A stretch of 58,414 bases of DNA, filler included, from Porpidia crustulata (lineage: Eukaryota): NCBI GenBank assembly GCA_964255105.1. It is 6 parts of 6 records of this genome, joined end to end, with 100 filler letters (N's around TTAATTAATTAA, not from the genome) between each part and the next. Parts side by side here need not be neighbours in the genome. Positions count along the whole stretch, not along the records: positions 1 to 9,691 come from CAXUWE010000904.1; 5 more parts are not named here. One strand, 5' to 3'. This document shows positions 1 through 48,785 of the stretch, in pieces. Under the pieces are notes generated by a model. It was not told the DNA's origin. It was given only the letters and a program-made list of their open reading frames with translations, and ran no database searches. The translations under genes were made by a program, and so were the position numbers. The first letter of the stretch is position 1. Each line of letters begins with the position of its first letter.

Positions 1-2882
1 CGGTGGAGGCTTCGACGATGTTGCCGTATTCGTCGTAGGTGACTTCGGTCTCGGCGGTGGTTTCGAGAATCTATGGTGGGTTTGGGGTTAGCGTTGATTT
101 TTTGGGATGGATATGTGAGGCGCGGGTCATGATATAAGGACTTGCACTCCTGAAACTTATCTCACAGCTCTTAAGGGCTGTCAGGTTAGGATAGATTATT
201 GGGAGAGCTACTTACGTTGCCGTATTCATCGTATTGAACCGTTTCGACTTCGGTCTCGGTTTCTACGACCTGGCCGTACTGTTCATGTATCGCGAGTCAG
301 CACATTCCGCTTGGCGGTGAGGTTGAGCTTCATGACACGTTGAGAGGGAGAGTTGGATGGATGCGTTCCAAACGCTCTCCATAATATGCTCAAACTCATA
401 GCAGGGCTTGAAGAGAAAAAGGGGCTCCAAGGATAAGCGTACCTCGTCGTACTGGACCTCCGTAGTCACTTCTTCAACCTCATATTCAATAGGGTTTCCG
501 TACTATAGGGATAGCTGGGATTAGAATTGCGATCGGGTTCAAGTTCGAGCTCGAGTGGAATACAGCGGATGTAAACGGCCGACATGCCCACATGAGTGTT
601 TGAGAGCTTTGAGCAGGGGTTAGGAAAAGGAATCATAGCTCACTTCATCGTATTGAATCTCTGTCTCCACGGTCTCGTAAACAATCTCATTGCCTGAAGC
701 ATCATACTAAATTTGGTTCTGCAGTCAGTATTGTCTCGATGGGCTGTAAGATCATCGTTCTTTGCAAAGGAGCATTCGCAATCCGCTATTCGCGGAAATC
801 AAAAATTCGTTGGCTTGCCCCACAAGATCCGATTAATTGATGGAAACAAGAAGAACAGAGCAAATGTGGGAATGAAAAGCAAACTATTGAAAGGTTCTGA
901 GACCAGATTTCGACAGAAGTCTTGTGTGTAAATCCATAAATAACATGATATATCGAAAGAAAAGGGGAACAACTGCTCGATATAATCTCCAAACACATGA
1001 GGATTCGCACACTGAAGGCCTTATGGATATTTAAGAGATTTGCAAAATCCACTTACTTCAATGTCCTGTATAGTCTCCGCAGTCGTGTATTCAATGAGGT
1101 TTCCGTCGTTGTCATACTCTGTGGTGATAGTTTCTTCCACTATTTTATTTCAGAGGTCAGCCCTTAATTCGATGGATCAAACAGTTACGTGGAGCGATAT
1201 AGTTAAAGATAGAGAGTAAATAGCAAAGCTCGGTATACTCTTGAAACACACTGGATGACAAAGATAGGGACTCGAGTAGCAAAACTAGAAATCGATCATA
1301 GAAAAACGCACCCGTCTCATATTCAATGATATTTCCAAAGGCATCACGCTCAGCCTCTACGGTTTCAGTAGTCTCAGTATCGGTGTAATTTCCGAAAGCA
1401 TCGACCTGGCGAGTTTCGATAATTTCGACGTCGCCACCTTGATAGTATGGCTGCTCCCAGCCCGGGCCAGCGGCGTAGCCGGGTCTCTCGTTGATCACTG
1501 TAACATCAACGTCCCGATTGACGATAGTAGATGGATGAGATGGATGTCCAGTCGGCAAATCGTTGAGGGCGTCGTAGGCTAAGACAGCGCCGCCACCTAG
1601 CGCAAGGCCTCCGGCAACGCCACCGGCGGCAGCAGCAGCCGTGTGTGAATGATTGGGTTGAGGAGGCGCATAGTAGTCACGGTTGAGACCCGTTGCTGGC
1701 ACTCCCACTGGAGGCGGAGCACCGTATTGCTGAGCATGCTGTTGGCCGTATTGAGGAGCATACTGCTGATACTGCTGGTTGTATTCATGATGGTATTGAG
1801 GATTATAAGGTGCGCCGTATTGTGCGTTGTAAGGAGCAGCAGGCTGCGGAGGGTATTGATTGAACTCCAAAGAACGAGCACCGGTCTGAGGCAAAGGACC
1901 GCCTGAAGGAGCTGCAGTGGGCTTCGGAGCGGCTGCTTTCGGGTCGGCGGCCTTGGCTGCAGGCTTTGGGGCGGGTTTTTCTGGGCTGAATCCGGGTCAG
2001 ATCGCTTTGCCAAGAAATGCAGCGCTAAAAAGCTTACTTTATCTTCTTGGAAAAAGAATCAAACATCAAGTTGATTCCTTTCCCAACGCCCACAGCTACT
2101 TCTGCCCCTACAGCGGTCATGATTGGATTATTGGTGGCCGCTGTTCCCACCGACTTCCCAATACCGGCAGGTACCGACTTAGGAACTGCCGTAGGTACAG
2201 GATTGGAGGCGTCTCCCAGCACAGTCCTGGGCATACCTGCAGGCGCAGCTTTGGCGGCACCAGCAACAACCACCTGTGGAGGGACGGACTGAGGCACCGG
2301 TTTGGCATTAGTGGGAGCGGCTGGAGGTTGACCAACAACGGGCACAGCTTTCGGAAGCTCCCTGGGGGTCGGGATAGGCCCAGGCATAGGCTTTCCGGCA
2401 TTGACGCCTGGCGCAACTGGCGCACCATTTGGAAGCTTGTTAGGAACCTGGTTTGGGCCTGGAATCGGCTTGGGGTATCCAGCGGTCATGCCCGGTGCAG
2501 CGGCAGGTTTCGGAGCAGTACCCGCCTGAGGAGCGGCCGGCTTGGGGTATCCAGCGGTCGTGCCTGGTGCAGCGGCAGGTTTCGGAGCAGTACCCGCCTG
2601 AGGAGCGGCTGGAACAGCCTTGCTGCCAGCTGTTGGTACAGCCGCCGGGGCATTCGGTCCTCCAGCTCCGGGAGGCTGTACAACTTTTCTTACTACTCGT
2701 TTGGGATCCGCTGCAGGTCCGTTCGGGTTAGCAATGGGTGGAGCGTCTACAATGGTGCCGTCTGGTCTTTTGATCACCCTTCGGACAACCTTCTTCGTCC
2801 CTGCAGGAGCGTTTCCGGCAGCCGGGCCTGGGCCTCCCGGGGCTGGTCTCGCAACCGGCGTACTTGGTGGTGCGGCACTCAT
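1..2882 (-). CDS. Multi-exon protein with Pro/Ala-rich N-terminus, Q/Y/G-rich middle and C-terminal acidic YD-like repeats; 3' end runs off the window
   Basis: Manual splicing: exons 2882-2038, ~1987-1312, 1139-1057, 706-644, 502-443, 278-216, 70-<1. All have GT donors (gtaagc, gtgcgt, gtaagt, gtgagc, gtacgc, gtaagt) and YAG acceptors, and the frame stays open: ...RDAFGNIIEYETVEETITTEYDNDGNLIEYTTAETIQDIEYDASGNEIVYETVETEIQYDEYGNPIEYEVEEVTTEVQYDEYGQVVETETEVETVQYDEYGNILETTAETEVTYDEYGNIVEAST. Confidence 0.8.
2467..2609. repeat. Intragenic 72-bp tandem duplication (24 aa, PAAPQAGTAPKPAAAPG[T/M]TAGYPK)
   Basis: ggcttggggtatccagcggtc...gaggagcggc begins at 2467 and again at 2539, near-identical. 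Confidence 0.9.
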
Positions 2883-4141
2883 TTTGGAGAGCTGTGAGAT
2901 GATTCCACTGCAGACTGGCTTTTGCTCTCCGATGACTAGAATGACGAATGAAAAACTGGTCTACTCAGTTCCTATTGCCTATAAGATTAAAGCTGTCTTG
3001 TCAGTTAGCTTGAAGCTCCATTTCCCGTAGGCAGATGTGAGGCAGGTACACACATGCAATGAAAAATCAAATATGACACCTGAAAAGTCAGCTCCTTGTA
3101 CAGCCAAAGACAGACAATTGCAGTAGAGGAACCAGAAATGTTTCTAGTGGGAGATGAGGGGTTCTTGTAGCTATATATGGCGCTGGACGCCTTAATCTCA
3201 AATCGCGCACTATCAACATTATCATGAACCTGCAGTCACAACTCATCCAAGCAAGCCGAAATGAGACGGGAACACTCATTGGCACAGCGTCTCCAGCTGA
3301 CAAGCACATGCATTAGCTCCGCCTCTATCAATCTCTTCAGCCCAAAGACTCAGGAGGTTGATGCCGGACTGAGCTCAGCCTCACGCCGTCACGGCAGGTC
3401 CGCCCAGTAGTCAGCATTTTTCCTCTCCACCTCATAGGTCGGCTCACCGCCATTTCCCTCGGGGACCCAGTCGAAACACTTTCTAATCAAAGACTGCAGG
3501 AGGGGGCCGCGTTTCGAACGAGAGAAATGAAAGTTCTACAAGGCCTGTTCCGGGCAGGAGCATAATAAGTTGGATTTAACGAACAGCCCCCAATCTTCAT
3601 GTACCGCGCTAACAGCCCTAGATTCGATAACTAACCGATATAATGCAAAGTTGGAGGGTTCGCATCGCATCGACATGATAGAACAAGGGGCCATTGAATC
3701 AGTGATAGTAACCCATGTCTCGGTCATATCAAAACCGACTGTACTACAACATCCATACCGTGACATGGAAATGTCATAGATCAAATACCTAGTTATCAAA
3801 GTTGGCGACTTCAGCGTTTCGTGAGTCCATAAAGTCAAAAGAACTTTCACGAAGATATCCGGAGGGACGGAGCGAAAGTAAACCTCGAAATGTTCACGGC
3901 ATCGATTTCCACAAACGCTAATGTGACCATAGTATATGTATGTTCAAGCGCTAATCCTATTCGCTTGCAGAGAAAACGACCACCGCTGGAGGACACAAAA
4001 CGCTATCCATCAGACTTCTATCCATGCAGCACGGAGTGTGTAAGAAACGCCGCTATGCAAGCCTTACATTCCAAGTATATGGGTATCGTAGAACATAAAA
4101 GAGATAACCACGCTGAAGCCAATGCGTCCGATAGCAACTCA

Positions 4142-6982
4142 TCAAACGTCCGGTGTCATTAATGCAGGAGGATCCGTCATGCTCAATCTTGGCAGTGGAT
4201 GAATCGACGGCAGATGCTTGTGTCTGCTTGGTGGATCCTTCAACGGCGGTGGCGGTGGTGCTCGGTCGGGACAAGGAGGTGAAGTCCCTCTTTCTCCCGC
4301 GATATCATCCTTCTGGTTGTTGGGACTGTGATCCCTGCTCCCCGCTTCCCCATCCTCTTCCACCACCGGCAGCGTCTGGCCTCCGACTCCCGGGGCGGTT
4401 TCCGCGCTTGGGCTTCGTACCGATGTGAGCGTTCTATCCGGCAAACTTTCCTCAACAGCACCTTGCTGCTCCGTCTTATGCGCCTGTTTCTCCGCCTTGT
4501 ATATCACTTTATCGGTCGAGGTCCGGGATATTCCAAAGCTCGTCTGTCGACGTCCACCGTCGACTTGATCACCGCTTTGCTTTTCACGCTCAGCTTCATC
4601 AGCGGTCATGGTGAGACCTGTGATGAATTTAATGAAGCGCTCGCCGTAATCTTCGGGAGGGATCGGAGAGATTTGCGATTTATTGTGCGACATGCCTTTC
4701 CAGAAGTGCTCTGCTCTTTTTACCAAGCCATACTAGGATTGAATTAGCGTCTCTGGACTACATTAGATGTTAGGGTGAGGTACATACGTGTGTCAAGCAG
4801 TCTATGACGCCGAGGTAGTAGATCTTGTCGCCTGGCCGCCCATCATCGTGACTTGCCCTGAACCCGCCATCATCACTGTAGAAAACAAAATTCTTCCGCT
4901 CCTCCAATAATTCATCCGGCATCTTGCTAGTACTCTTATCCATTGGAACCGGCTTTTGGGTCTTGATTATGTGGCGTAGCTGCCTCGCCTTGCGCGCAGT
5001 CTCAAGTTTTGATGGCGTTCGCATAAGCATACTCACTTCTGGTTCTTCATTTGCCTCCCCTCCAGGCTGGAATACTTGAAGGGTCTTGTCCCGCAGGTTT
5101 TCTTCATTGCCTTTACTCATGTCGTGTATGCCAACTAACAGGGAATAATCCATAATTTTTAGCTTTCGTAAAAGGGCTACGTCATGCTTCAGTTGTTCCA
5201 CAAAGATGTACTTCTTGTCAGGTCCAAATTCAAAACGATAGTCCCTTCGCAGCCAATTCAAATCTTTCAAGGTCGCCCGTGGATTACGCTCGAGATCTTC
5301 TTCCTTGAAGTCCCTCCCGATTGTCGAGCCTTTGAGGTCAAAAGTTTGGTGTATATCTCGATGTGGAGGGAACAAGTTGTTCATTATGACGAAGTGTATT
5401 TTCCTACCATAAGGTAATTTGACTCGATGAAGGCCATAGAACTGGGATAAGAGCGTGTTTGGGTGACGATCTATATGGGCGTAATATTCTCTTAATATTT
5501 TCCTGAGAAGTTTGTGCTCGGCATGATGGATCGTTTTGATGATATACTTATAGTCGCGGGAGAAATAAAAGAAACTTCCACTTTTCCCTGGTGATCCAAG
5601 CTCAGAGAGGATGTATTTGCTTGTCAAAGACATCAAATAATCTCCAGGATCGAGGTGGAATTTGGCCCTGAGATTACGAAACACCCAGGGCGCGTAGTCT
5701 TTGAATTTGAAATCATATTTCGCAGACGGAGTTAGTTCATTCCCAGTGCTTGAGGGGTATTGTGTTAGCCATATGAGATCTGAAGTATAGTCGACCACCA
5801 GGAAACTCACATATCGAAGGAGAACTTGTGTCTCGCGTCAAAGTCTGCATCCGTCAACTCCCGATCAAGTTTAGCATTGGTTCTCGAGACAGTAAAGCGT
5901 ATGCCAGTCAGCATATTATATGCGGTGACCCAATTCACATGGTTCATGTCAACCTTGGTTCCTACCATCACCCGGTCATCCTCTTCCTCCTCTTTCTTCT
6001 TTCTTCTACTACTTCTCTTCTGACGGATGGTTTCCGTCCACCTTGCCACATCTCCATCCGGTGGTATCTCATCTAAATATAGGTCGGAGTGTATGGAACG
6101 TGTATTCCGCCTAATCAGGTTTGCGGAATTCCTGCTCGTGTGATAGGTGGGCGACATTCGTTCGCTCTCGGTGAATGCATCATCGGAAGCGTTCGTAGGT
6201 GATGTGAAATCTCGAGAGGTTCGGCTGGTTGATAGCCTTGGAACTTGAAGGGTGTGACGATGTTGCAAGCTTGGCGCTCGTGGATGCAAAGATGTGGGTG
6301 AACTCACGCCATACTGTTGATTTTGGTTAGGGTAATTGGAAGGAGACGAGAATTTGTTCGGAGCTTCTGAGTCCTTTTGGGCTGTTACTAACTGTTCGCT
6401 GTTGGGGCCAACGGTCGTTTGCTGATGATTACTGTTTGCACTGATGTGGGTGGTAGGCGGTGCGGAAGATGAATGCGCCCTTGCGTGCCCAGAACGATAA
6501 CTGTTCCCAAGCTGTCCGGTCTCTGCAGGCTTCGGGCCATGATTCATTGCGGTGTTCCCGTTTGTCTGCGGCTGGGGATGGGCATGGTCCAGCATACTGT
6601 GCTTCACCAGGCCATTAATAGGTCCAGGGCTCTGCCTACCACTCTCACCATGACCTCCAGACCCACTTGCCATTGAATGATTGCTCTCATTCCTCGAATG
6701 CGCATTCTCCCTGCTCTCCGTGCTCCCACTGGTTCTCCCATTTGGCAGTGAATGCAGGCTCGGATTCAGCCCATTCGGTCCGCTTAGGAAAACCCCATCA
6801 ACTATGTGTTTATTCCCACCAGAACCATCCATTGCGAAGCTATTCATTAATCTTCCTACTGTATTCGGAGACCGCTGTGCTTGCTTTTCTTGAGAGGGCC
6901 GATGAGGCGGCTCAAAAGGTGAGGATTCGCTCGCAGTCAAGTGTACAGGCTCGCCGACCAAATCCGACAAAAGCGAAGGCAT
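4142..6982 (-). CDS. MSS4: Phosphatidylinositol-4-phosphate 5-kinase
   Basis: Exons 6982-5811, 5748-4788, 4732-4142. PIP5K motifs [64 protein letters not shown]. Confidence 0.95.
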
Positions 6983-8270
6983 GTTGGAAAGGAAGTACAA
7001 CGATTCTTATACAGCCAAGGAACAGTGATTTCTGTGGCCTGGTCAAATCTTGAGGACTGTCTTTGACCGGCTTCTCGATCATGCAGTCTTCATACTTCCT
7101 CCCATACAGCTGCTTTCCAGATAGAACCAAGTCCTGCAATGGCTGACTTCATGAAGCTATTGGGACCACGGATCCAGTGACGACTACTTGACGACGGGTC
7201 TATTCAACGCAGTCAAGATCAAAGCCGTTCCCGCTGGAAAAGGCTTGTTGCATTAATTCCGCTTCACTCATCCAATATTAAGTGAGAGGTCGCGAGTCTC
7301 GGACCAATAATCAGAGGAAATGGAATAGTTTCGATTGCATTGGCCGTTGTCCCGGAATAAATCGTCGCGAGTAACGGCAGGATTTGGACCTGGGAAGTCG
7401 GCAATTGCATGTCCCGACTCAGCCTTACAGTAAATTACACCTAGCCACCTAGCCACACGGGAATCCAAAAAATCCATACACCAAAAATCGATCTCTATGA
7501 ATATAAATTAGATTTAATGATTATTTGTAGAAGATTTTTCGATGATTCTACGTAATCTGACTGTTGTGCCGTTCAATCTCGTCGTTTGCATTCATTATCA
7601 GTTAACTTTGTAGCGTTCATGTGTTCTATATTAACTTTGATGTTGTGGGCGGGAAATCGATATTTGCGGTATGGATATTTTTGCCTGGGTGCCAGCGCAA
7701 GTGAGGTTCCCTCGCCCGAAAAGTTCTTCTCCTTGGTACGGAACAGAGAGACTATTTCTAGACGATATACTTTAGAAAGTGTGTTCCTTGACCAAACTTC
7801 GTAGGTCACTATTCTACATAGCAGTCCACCCAAAGACAAGATTTGTTTGCTTTGTTATGCGGCCTTCCGTGCACAAATAAAGGGGTGTTAGAGTCTGGTC
7901 GCACAGGGTCACTCTGAAGCCTTTGGGAATCACGTCTGCAACGCCAACACTGAGTCTGTAAGCCTTCAAAAGCACGAATAGAGAATCACGAAACACAAGT
8001 TTGTAGAGTGCATTTAGTATATCCAGCAGGAATATAGTTACAGCAAGAAACCCTTCGTGACACAACGCCTCTTAGCTACAATGGCAGCGGCAGCATAAAA
8101 CCCTTCATTCCGGCTGCAGACAACAAGGAAATCCATAATACCCGCGTCCTAGGTCCGTCATACGTAGAGTGTATAACGCGACCGAGATCATACAAACTCC
8201 ATGCACACCCTTCTCTCAGACCCAACCACAACCCTAGAGTGTTAACAAGAATGAAGCTATATAGAAGAGC

Positions 8271-9603
8271 CTAGGTGGTGGCAGCAGCTTCAGCCTTCTT
8301 TTTCGGTGTTGCGGTCTTCTTGGCCGCGGCAGCCTTCTTTGGTGCGGCTTTCTTAACCGGAGCAGTGGTCTTAGCTGGGCCTTTGGTGACGCGCCCTGAT
8401 TTGGTTTTGCCGAGTACCTTTTCTTGTTCTACAATTGCAGGAGCCTATGGTGACAAATTAACGTGAGTTGAAAGAGAGGTAACAAGATCACATACGGCTG
8501 CAGGTGTCTTGCGTTTACTCTTGGTATTGGCTTTGGGCTTGGGTGCGGCAGCCTTCTTCGTGGCTGTGGCCTTTTTAGGTGCTGCGGCTTTGGCTTTGAT
8601 TGCCGTCTTCTTTGCTGGAGCAGCCTCGGTAGCGGCCTTCGAAGGGCGCCCAGGTGACTTAGCCCCAGTAGCCTTCTGTAGAAAGGTCAGCTCAGCGCAA
8701 GGGCTATAGGATGCTGAGGTTCGATTTAGGTACACACCTTTGGGGCAGCCGGCTTTTTCTCCGTGGCTGGCTTTGCCGAAGCAGTTTTCTTTGCGAGCTT
8801 TACAGTACCTGAGGAGCCTACGTATGCCAATGTTAGACGCAAGTTATCGTAGCGATAGAAGGAGATCTCATGTCTTTTCCATATCAATGGATAATCGTCA
8901 AAGTAAAAAGCAATTAGTAAACAAGAGGAAAGCACCTATTTTAATAGGCTAATATGGAATGAGGTTGTTGCTGAAGCATTTTTCGGCCGAAGCAATACTG
9001 AAAGCTAAGGGAAATCAAGACTCACCCTTGGGTTGTTCAAAGTCGCCCTTCTCCACCCCTGTGCGGATGGCTTTGTTGAATTGGACGTCAAAGACAGCAC
9101 CAGAGGCGGCAGAGGTTTTATTGTTCGCAAGAATATACTTCTTAATTGCTGGGCGGCTTCGCAGGGGATTTAAGTCAGCATAATACTTTTCAAAACAACG
9201 CGCTTAAGCAAATAGTGCGACAACGTGCGAAAGACCTGTACAAGACGCTTACCTGCTACCATTGCGTTCCTTGAGCTGCACCGATAGAAGTCGCGTCAGC
9301 ATATGGGATTTTGAATAGCGACTTAAGACGTGGAAAAGTCGGGTTTTCGATAGAAATTTGCTTCCGAGTGGCAACTAGACGAATGCGCGTGGGGATGTGA
9401 ACTTACACTGAGAATAGCTTCTTTGATCATATCTGTGATGCCGCATCAGTAAGATTCCGCGATCATGTTACAATGATGATTAAAGCTATGCGACATTGTG
9501 GAGGGGACTCAGACAAGAATAACACACCTTTGTAGGACGCATGACCGGGAGCGGCAGCGGCCTTCTTTGGTGCGGCAGCAGTTGTGGCTTTCTTGGTAGG
9601 CAT
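8271..9603 (-). CDS. HHO1: Linker histone H1 (7 exons)
   Basis: Exons 9603-9528, 9432-9407, 9275-9253, 9156-9026, 8817-8738, 8675-8496, 8444-8271 splice to MPTKKA...[34 protein letters not shown]...FEQPKGSSGTVKLAKK plus a K/A/P-rich tail, the H15 globular domain signature. Confidence 0.95.
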
Positions 9604-9691
9604 AATTAATTATGGAGATGAACTGAGAGTCGTATGGACGAGGATTGGAATGAGGTGCTGCACGTGGGATTTGGGGTATATTGTTGTTAAT

Positions 9692-9791
9692 NNNNNNNNN
9701 NNNNNNNNNNNNNNNNNNNNNNNNNNNNNNNNNNNTTAATTAATTAANNNNNNNNNNNNNNNNNNNNNNNNNNNNNNNNNNNNNNNNNNNN
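9692..9791. other. Artificial contig linker (N44-TTAATTAATTAA-N44)
   Basis: Exactly 100 bp, a six-frame-stop oligo flanked by Ns; identical at five places. Confidence 0.98.
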
Positions 9792-19453: not shown

Positions 19454-19553
19454 NNNNNNNNNNNNNNNNNNNNNNNNNNNNNNNNNNNNNNNNNNNNTTA
19501 ATTAATTAANNNNNNNNNNNNNNNNNNNNNNNNNNNNNNNNNNNNNNNNNNNN
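19454..19553. other. Artificial contig linker
   Basis: N44-TTAATTAATTAA-N44. Confidence 0.98.
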
Positions 19554-29211: not shown

Positions 29212-29311
29212 NNNNNNNNNNNNNNNNNNNNNNNNNNNNNNNNNNNNNNNNNNNNTTAATTAATTAANNNNNNNNNNNNNNNNNNNNNNNNNNNNNNNNN
29301 NNNNNNNNNNN
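29212..29311. other. Artificial contig linker
   Basis: N44-TTAATTAATTAA-N44. Confidence 0.98.
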
Positions 29312-38954: not shown

Positions 38955-39054
38955 NNNNNNNNNNNNNNNNNNNNNNNNNNNNNNNNNNNNNNNNNNNNTT
39001 AATTAATTAANNNNNNNNNNNNNNNNNNNNNNNNNNNNNNNNNNNNNNNNNNNN
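38955..39054. other. Artificial contig linker
   Basis: N44-TTAATTAATTAA-N44. Confidence 0.98.
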
Positions 39055-48685: not shown

Positions 48686-48785
48686 NNNNNNNNNNNNNNN
48701 NNNNNNNNNNNNNNNNNNNNNNNNNNNNNTTAATTAATTAANNNNNNNNNNNNNNNNNNNNNNNNNNNNNNNNNNNNNNNNNNNN
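48686..48785. other. Artificial contig linker
   Basis: N44-TTAATTAATTAA-N44. Confidence 0.98.

Follow-up and report, generated by a model that had tools for sequence, protein, structure and literature searches.

The window, a stretch of 58,414 nucleotides (nt), filler included, from Porpidia crustulata (GCA_964255105.1), joins six contig parts, the first of which (contig C904, positions 1 to 9691) carries a seven-exon, minus-strand gene whose product ends in a series of very acidic repeats organized around a DxxGN-type turn (Table 1). The reading frame remains open for 619 amino acids (aa) from the ATG to position 1, which is the end of the contig, and the gene's own C-terminus lies beyond it. 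Two large upstream exons code for the ∼465 aa that precede the repeats, and the gene is substantially longer than the interval of 1 to 1420 originally assigned to it. The exons and repeats are real and constitute the 3' end of this larger gene; the full protein is probably 700 to 780 aa here and is ∼600 aa in a complete relative. The protein apparently belongs to an undescribed, lineage-restricted family, and a Pfam scan found no family above its cut-off, in keeping with the original prediction.

The splice path was assigned from splice signals and homology. Exons 4, 5, and 6 lie where they had been predicted, each with a YAG acceptor, a CTRAC-type branch point, a GT donor, and phase 0-0. The path is supported by the match of exon 7 to the syntenic orthologue at locus L007 (6508 to 6552; 13 of 15 residues identical), and by P0009, an unspliced open reading frame (ORF) of a relative, which is colinear across the exon 3/4 and exon 4/5 junctions without introns at either. 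One DNA read run, possibly the source data, covers positions 69 to 1943 in a single contig, with neither joints nor variants, and is silent on expression.

Eight [YVR]DxxG[NQ] motifs start at residues 476 to 608 with spacings of 19, 20, 20, 18, 20, 18, and 17, in agreement with a predicted minimum of eight repeats of 17 to 20 aa. Shuffled versions of the region with its composition preserved contain 0.011 motifs on average and at most two in 20,000, and six of the nine motif matches in a six-frame translation of the whole window fall within 1 to 1405. The repeat region has a net charge of -44 over 152 aa (-0.29 per residue), as befits the acidic character noted previously, whereas the alternation of hydrophobic with Glu/Thr residues that had been described is not significant, the period-2 hydrophobic/polar signal between turns being no higher than in shuffles (P = 0.86 at 180 degrees). 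Overall, the N-terminal half of the protein is basic and rich in Pro and Ala and contains short islands of conservation; a conserved Gly/Ala segment and the C-terminal repeats follow. No obvious N-terminal signal peptide is present, also as predicted, the first 30 aa being Pro/Ala/Gly. A weak match to DUF2076 (PF09849; E = 4e-5, 24.2 bits) spans the Tyr/Gln-rich and Gly/Ala segments; it is far below the cut-off of 38, involves low-complexity sequence, and concerns the Gly-rich tail of a bacterial family.

A repeat profile searched against 1.84 billion representatives yields 36 matches, comprising one ORF of the window, four orthologous fragments (P0004, P0005, P0007, and P0009), and 31 unrelated proteins that share the DxxGN turn; 13 of these are RHS_repeat-positive and two are walnut dehydrin-type proteins, and the remainder include immunoglobulin (Ig)-like, Cna_B, and propeller proteins. 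Three more, P0043, P0044, and P0045, came from a core profile (seven matches among 8000 scored); their cluster mates are P0046 to P0049, and the orthologues amount to about seven other sequence clusters. A metagenome scan of 60 candidate stretches contributed eight near-identical loci, L007 to L014. Locus L006 was discarded as a chance match. No named fungal protein is among the matches of the homologue searches, the best PDB sequence match has an E value of 0.51, and the ESM Atlas gave no usable match (best 0.77). No longer full-length homologue of exon 2 residues 110 to 224 was found among 6382 candidates, which is weak evidence, and searches of the fragmented own-genome assembly find at least one copy. 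Two other proteins appear to be independent acidic turn-repeat proteins: P0015 (301 aa) has about ten Gln-rich YDEFGNP repeats of shorter period and passes Pfam RHS_repeat, and P0024 (909 aa) has a C-terminal run of acidic EYDEEGNKIxYE repeats and no Pfam match.

Directly upstream on the same strand is a gene for an MSS4-type phosphatidylinositol-4-phosphate 5-kinase (PF01504; 4142 to 6982, minus strand), an arrangement conserved in all five loci compared (L007, L010, L011, L012, and L014). The two short MSS4 introns are common to the window and L007. The best named MSS4 matches are Psora and Teloschistales proteins (85 to 86%), and in a tree of 46 of the 120 listed matches (28 named, 18 unnamed) together with the window and L007, the latter two are sisters (100/99) on a long branch that groups with Lecanorales and Teloschistales (92/90) without resolved order; by this sequence evidence, the host groups with Lecanoromycetidae lichen fungi. 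The L007 protein is encoded by two exons, with net charges of +17 and then -70, and has its acidic tail at the end. Relative to L007, and beside the value for exon 1 in Table 1, identity is 72% in the exon 2 core, 94% in the last 31 residues of exon 1, and 93% in the MSS4 exon. In that 31-residue stretch (aa 251 to 281), 29 residues are identical, 13 of them through synonymous changes, and synonymous change per identical residue is 0.45, compared with 0.42 in the MSS4 exon; on these substitution patterns, the gene is real and under purifying selection. No named member of the family was found in these searches, although conservation in parts of the gene equals that of an essential lipid kinase, which makes it a promising candidate for a function specific to this lichen lineage.

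A continuation past position 1 was not found with patterns, exon and orthologue proteins, L010 downstream DNA, or the L011 downstream gene; the pattern search gave 31 matches against a control level of 25, and the block is in none of the 30 loci checked. Contig C1095 was rejected as the continuation because its upstream gene differs. The gene downstream of the orthologue in L011 (7672 to 8347) is small and Cys-rich, resembles one for a LITAF-type zinc-ribbon protein, and has an own-genome match at C1095:1940-2270 (L022), on another contig and with a different upstream gene. Genes on either side of the artificial spacers in the window (9692 to 9791, 19454 to 19553, 29212 to 29311, 38955 to 39054, and 48686 to 48785; each 44 N, a 12-base AT word, and 44 N) are not neighbours, since the spacers join separate contigs.

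The number of repeats varies between species, as had been proposed, and the place of five extra repeats in the window is taken in L007 by 59 aa that lack canonical turns. In exon 1, the region of 2523 to 2640 and 2463 to 2537 contains a tandem duplication of ∼25 aa (with APQAGTAPKPAAAPG) that is single copy in L007, and thus the N-terminal linker also varies in length by duplication.

The three introns shared with L007 (intron 1 and both MSS4 introns) are about 50 to 60 nt, whereas introns 2 to 6 are lineage-specific, measure 141 to 350 nt, are confined to the interval from repeat 2 to the anchor repeat, and are all absent from L007 to L014. The repeats are uninterrupted by introns in L007 to L014, P0004, and P0048, and P0009 lacks introns 3 and 4; the micro-exons are missing from some close relatives. 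In P0005, P0007, P0009, P0043, and P0044, a repeat gives way to unrelated sequence, and the changeover falls on a Gly or Val codon that could belong to a GT donor; two different phases are seen, and introns are presumed at these repeat ends. The intron offsets from the YD motif are +12.3, 0, +3, +3, and +6, and only exon 5 is therefore in repeat register, which does not support the proposed one repeat per micro-exon. That exons 4 to 6 could be skipped or duplicated holds for the reading frame, all three being phase 0-0, but skipping of exon 4 or 6 destroys two turn motifs, and among six contiguous patterns of skipping, the repeat spacing survives only when exon 5 alone is lost.

Similarity between exons is evident at the DNA level (z = 11 for exons 6 and 7; z = 8 for exons 4 and 6), whereas the introns do not convincingly resemble one another (lowest P among 10 pairs, 0.01), so a recent exon-plus-intron duplication is not evident. 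Intron-exon remnant similarity is at chance level (one of 30 pairs at P = 0.03). The start of intron 4 (625 to 643) reads in frame as V-S-Y-D-S-F, resembling a decayed repeat start, with no significant intron-exon DNA similarity. The introns are not unusually structured, and DNA searches with 707 to 1311 and 71 to 643 match only their own locus, which in a fragmented assembly is a lower bound; introner-like (multi-copy mobile) introns were thus set aside, with no second copy in that assembly. Because the intron positions differ and the introns are long, sequence comparison favours intron gain in the repeat block, and concerted 3' intron loss through cDNA, an established mechanism, would likewise account for L007 having just its 5' intron. 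Close relatives differing by up to five introns in one repeat block make repeat-linked intron gain or loss testable.

Table 1. Features of the acidic repeat gene and its upstream region, in window coordinates
Feature	Coordinates	Strand	Details
Upstream non-coding block with TATA-like run (probable promoter)	3147..3268	-	78% identity over 122 nt to the same position in L007
Exon 1	2038..2882	-	Starts with ATG at 2882; codes for 281 aa, rich in Pro/Ala/Gly, with net charge +21; identity to exon 1 of L007, 63%
Two basic Lys/Arg/Val-rich segments (aa 30-47, 61-68)	2679..2795	-	From alignment; the first, KKVVRRVI..PDGT, is conserved
Putative amphipathic helix at end of exon 1 (aa 251-281)	2040..2132	-	From conservation; helical hydrophobic moment 0.97
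Intron 1	1986..2037	-	52 nt, phase 2; donor context shared by all 8 loci, L007-L014
Exon 2	1312..1985	-	Pro/Lys linker, Tyr/Gln/Pro-rich stretch, conserved core from GLNRDYY, repeats 1 and 2 (motifs at 1405 and 1348)
Gly/Ala-rich hydrophobic segment (aa 398-420)	1571..1639	-	Most hydrophobic window of the protein; conserved
Intron 2	1140..1311	-	172 nt, phase 1; GT..AG and branch point; absent in L007
Exon 3	1057..1139	-	83 nt, phase 1-0; repeat 3; matches P0009
Intron 3	707..1056	-	350 nt, phase 0; no intron at matching place in P0009
Exon 4	644..706	-	63 nt, phase 0-0; one repeat plus first 3 residues of next turn
Intron 4	503..643	-	141 nt, phase 0; no intron at matching place in P0009
Exon 5	443..502	-	60 nt, phase 0-0; sole exon with exactly one repeat in register
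Intron 5	279..442	-	164 nt, phase 0
Exon 6	216..278	-	63 nt, phase 0-0; one repeat plus 3 residues
Intron 6	71..215	-	145 nt, phase 0
Exon 7	1..70	-	Cut by contig end; repeat 8, the anchor repeat common to intronless orthologues

AlphaFold models of two natural unspliced relatives, P0004 and P0009, illustrate the predicted fold. The P0004 model is a meander with strands of 10 to 13 residues and turns on the DxxG motifs; its predicted local distance difference test score (pLDDT) is 75 to 87 over residues 181 to 280, 64 to 87 per block over 161 to 300, and below 50 for 1 to 160. P0009, the closest unspliced proxy of exons 3 to 5, is modelled with strands at residues 11 to 25 and 31 to 48 (15 and 18 residues) between YDxxGN turns (pLDDT 67 to 81 over residues 1 to 50). 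In the relatives, each repeat probably contributes one long strand to a beta-meander of a single layer, which fits the acidic beta-hairpin region originally proposed. Foldseek with P0004 ranks Borrelia OspA sheets 1 to 3, with Rhs and teneurin chains at template modelling (TM) scores of 0.07 to 0.13 and root mean square deviations (rmsd) above 21 (best E = 1.2e-4). VIA-align gives OspA a Z of 10.2 (rmsd 2.8, 116 residues aligned) with porins tied within 1 Z, a tie that in these models reflects a generic meander; a fold search with the 80-aa P0009 model is uninformative (best Z, 4.2). The Gly/Ala segment has a Kyte-Doolittle 19-residue mean of 1.56 and is a helix in the P0004 model but with low pLDDT. 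A complex prediction of the L007 basic N-terminal segment with the acidic repeats, run without folded controls, scored 0.02.

Our leading interpretation, tentative and with a probability of roughly 0.45, is that the protein is an intracellular bipolar scaffold, docked on a membrane or a partner, with an acidic sheet that folds when its charge is screened. The bipolar architecture is plain in the protein sequence. By analogy with the modelled relatives, each DxxG[NDE] motif would be a tight turn and the 11 to 18 residues between turns one strand, so that the repeats would lie flat as a single antiparallel layer, a beta-meander resembling the central sheet of OspA and not an RHS barrel. The basic Pro/Ala-rich arm would project to one side. 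Intracellular docking, to a membrane or to a partner, may be the role of the Gly/Ala segment together with the conserved amphipathic helix. At approximately -0.3 charge per residue, the sheet might fold only when screened by Ca2+/Mg2+, drying, or basic protein segments, and the folded form could present a polyanionic surface of Glu, Thr, and Tyr to which cations or basic partners bind. Repeats would be gained and lost by tandem duplication within coding sequence because sheet length is loosely constrained; introns would come and go at unrelated positions in this labile block, leaving micro-exons as a by-product of intron turnover and not as switchable modules.

Several observations weigh against the scaffold. 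The folds are those of relatives and not of the window's own spliced protein, and the confident part of P0004 corresponds mostly to sequence beyond the contig end, with repeats 1 and 2 at a pLDDT of 30 to 41. The folding alignments are shallow (4 and 9 rows), predicted TM scores are 0.46 and 0.40, and five P0009 models, run without a scrambled-sequence control, have mean pLDDTs of 52 to 68. P0048 has lost most middle turns and kept its acidic composition (four motifs), a pattern that fits charge mattering more than fold. The intron-state tree (nine core sequences, with six near-duplicate loci and P0046 left out) requires two changes and has no well-supported branch from which to read the direction of change.

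The P0048 pattern is also what is expected if the repeats are disordered and dehydrin-like or late embryogenesis abundant (LEA)-like with transient turns, acting as a desiccation or ion-buffering polyampholyte, the AlphaFold sheet being an artefact of beta-prone composition. According to PMC8961592, the dehydrin Y-segment is defined as D[DE][YHF]GNP and the K-segment defines dehydrins. Repeat 5 of the window protein contains a strict Y-segment, DEYGNP, which is absent from three relatives and is not defining by itself, and DEYGN is present in three repeats; the charge of the repeats and the walnut proteins among the profile matches point the same way. However, two K-segment patterns are unmatched in the window, L007 exon 2, P0004, and P0009, Pfam scans give no match to PF00257 (dehydrin), Val/Ile/Thr/Tyr/Phe/Trp make up 46% of the repeats compared with 26% in dehydrin P0018, and the modelled meander is regular with pLDDT up to 87. 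A charge-hydropathy test does not discriminate, as it also classes five of five YD-like control proteins as unfolded. On balance, disorder seems rather doubtful. A type II membrane protein, with the Gly/Ala segment spanning, the basic half cytosolic, and the acidic sheet facing the wall or lumen and binding Ca2+, metals, or mineral surfaces, would account for the single conserved hydrophobic segment between basic and acidic, Thr-rich halves and for its modelled helix. We consider this topology quite unlikely: the mean hydropathy of the segment is modest and owes much to Gly/Ala, its N-terminal flank lacks a Lys/Arg cluster, and model confidence there is below 30.

The three successive phase 0-0 exons, the exact removal of one repeat with preserved spacing by skipping exon 5, and the greater length of the repeat-block introns would all suit a role for exons 4 to 6 as cassettes whose alternative splicing adjusts the length of the sheet in a single organism. 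Such tuning is improbable, given that a single skipping pattern preserves register, that several relatives lack these introns, and that, in the model, removing one strand would reverse the direction of all later strands. Most improbable of all is true descent from bacterial YD/RHS repeats by truncation and acidification. The sequence resemblance is real, because TIGR01643 (YD_repeat_2x) passes its low cut-off of 15.8 in two of seven sequences, both relatives (P0009, 25.4 bits; L007, 16.7), the window exons scoring 14.4 and 15.7, the latter, for exon 7, being close to the cut-off; moreover, 13 of the 36 profile matches pass Pfam RHS_repeat, and Rhs and teneurin chains do appear in the Foldseek list. 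Against descent, all fungal sequences scanned are below the RHS_repeat (PF05593) cut-off of 22 (best, 19.2 and 15.5), TM scores to Rhs and teneurin chains do not exceed 0.13, and the repeat profile also brings in Big_1, Cna_B, SBBP, and dehydrin proteins via the DxxGN turn. The Rhs-associated core self-cleaves at a DPxG motif; neither this motif nor an RHS-core Pfam match is present in the complete orthologues L007, P0004, and P0048, all of which end in an acidic tail. Spacer composition also differs: omitting two end residues per side, inner Gly/Pro occurs in 0 of 7 spacers in the window, 0 of 7 in L007, 0 of 5 in P0004, and 0 of 2 in P0009 (0 of 21 fungal spacers), compared with 54 of 101 in 12 RHS_repeat-positive control proteins (P0015, the 13th such match, was excluded as probably not bacterial). 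The hairpin sheet in the relatives' models agrees with the original prediction, while the kinship with YD/RHS shells that it envisaged is not upheld. The resemblance is best explained by the shared turn, and convergence is likelier than descent because the scores are borderline and the DxxGN turn also retrieves dehydrins and Ig domains.

An elaborated form of the scaffold, in which a lichen-lineage, membrane-anchored, acidic single-layer sheet switches from coil to sheet, or polymerises via basic N-terminal strands, on drying or Ca2+, with length tuned between species by repeat duplication and fresh intron gain and perhaps within species by exon 5 skipping, is unlikely in its entirety. If true, it would represent an independent eukaryotic invention of a YD-type turn repeat and a recent intron-gain hotspot datable among close relatives. 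A natural sheet of one layer and high charge would be a useful model system for studying conditional folding and the binding of cations in cells that tolerate desiccation. Lichen concentric bodies were weighed as a possible connection, which was left unsupported.

The literature drawn on comprises PMC8961592, PMC6425310, PMC7168625, PMC10093061, and the preprint bioRxiv 10.64898/2026.06.16.732702. In searches that miss most subscription papers, neither a description of this family nor a paper joining the subjects of fungi, YD repeats, and lichens was found; none of the papers from one such search contains 'acidic repeat', and most terms on intron gain brought up no paper. The main text of the Peltigera pangenome preprint does not mention Rhs or YD, and the gene could sit there as an unannotated orthogroup.

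Among known systems, the YD/RHS proteins (PF05593, TIGR01643; Rhs effectors, TcB-TcC, and teneurins) share the YDxxGN-type turn, a period of ∼20 aa, and an antiparallel beta-meander. According to PMC6425310, each YD repeat is a pair of strands and the repeats spiral into a shell capped by the Rhs core, the teneurin shell region being 1458 aa. In contrast, the window protein is predicted to have one long strand per repeat and no second turn, its charge is -0.3 per residue compared with -0.03 in control spacers, and its complete orthologues have no Rhs-associated core, propeller, or cargo domain; the 8 to 11 turns within 200 to 230 aa of the window protein and orthologues are too few for a hollow shell. 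Structurally, the protein is predicted from its relatives to be a beta-hairpin meander that probably falls outside the YD/RHS family, and carrying a YDxxGN motif is not enough to make a protein RHS-like. Ss-Rhs1 of Sclerotinia sclerotiorum is a precedent for fungal proteins annotated with Rhs repeats; according to PMC7168625, it is secreted and orthologues are reported only in Sclerotinia and Botrytis, and it is set apart here by that description rather than by sequence. Plant dehydrins (group 2 LEA) resemble the window protein in the Y-segment and by their presence among the profile matches, but differ in having a K-segment and Gly/His-rich rather than beta-prone spacers. The closest structural counterpart of the P0004 model is the single-layer sheet of Borrelia OspA and its engineered extended forms, which, at 12 to 17% identity, with unrelated porins tied and no sign of homology, is a fold analogue only.

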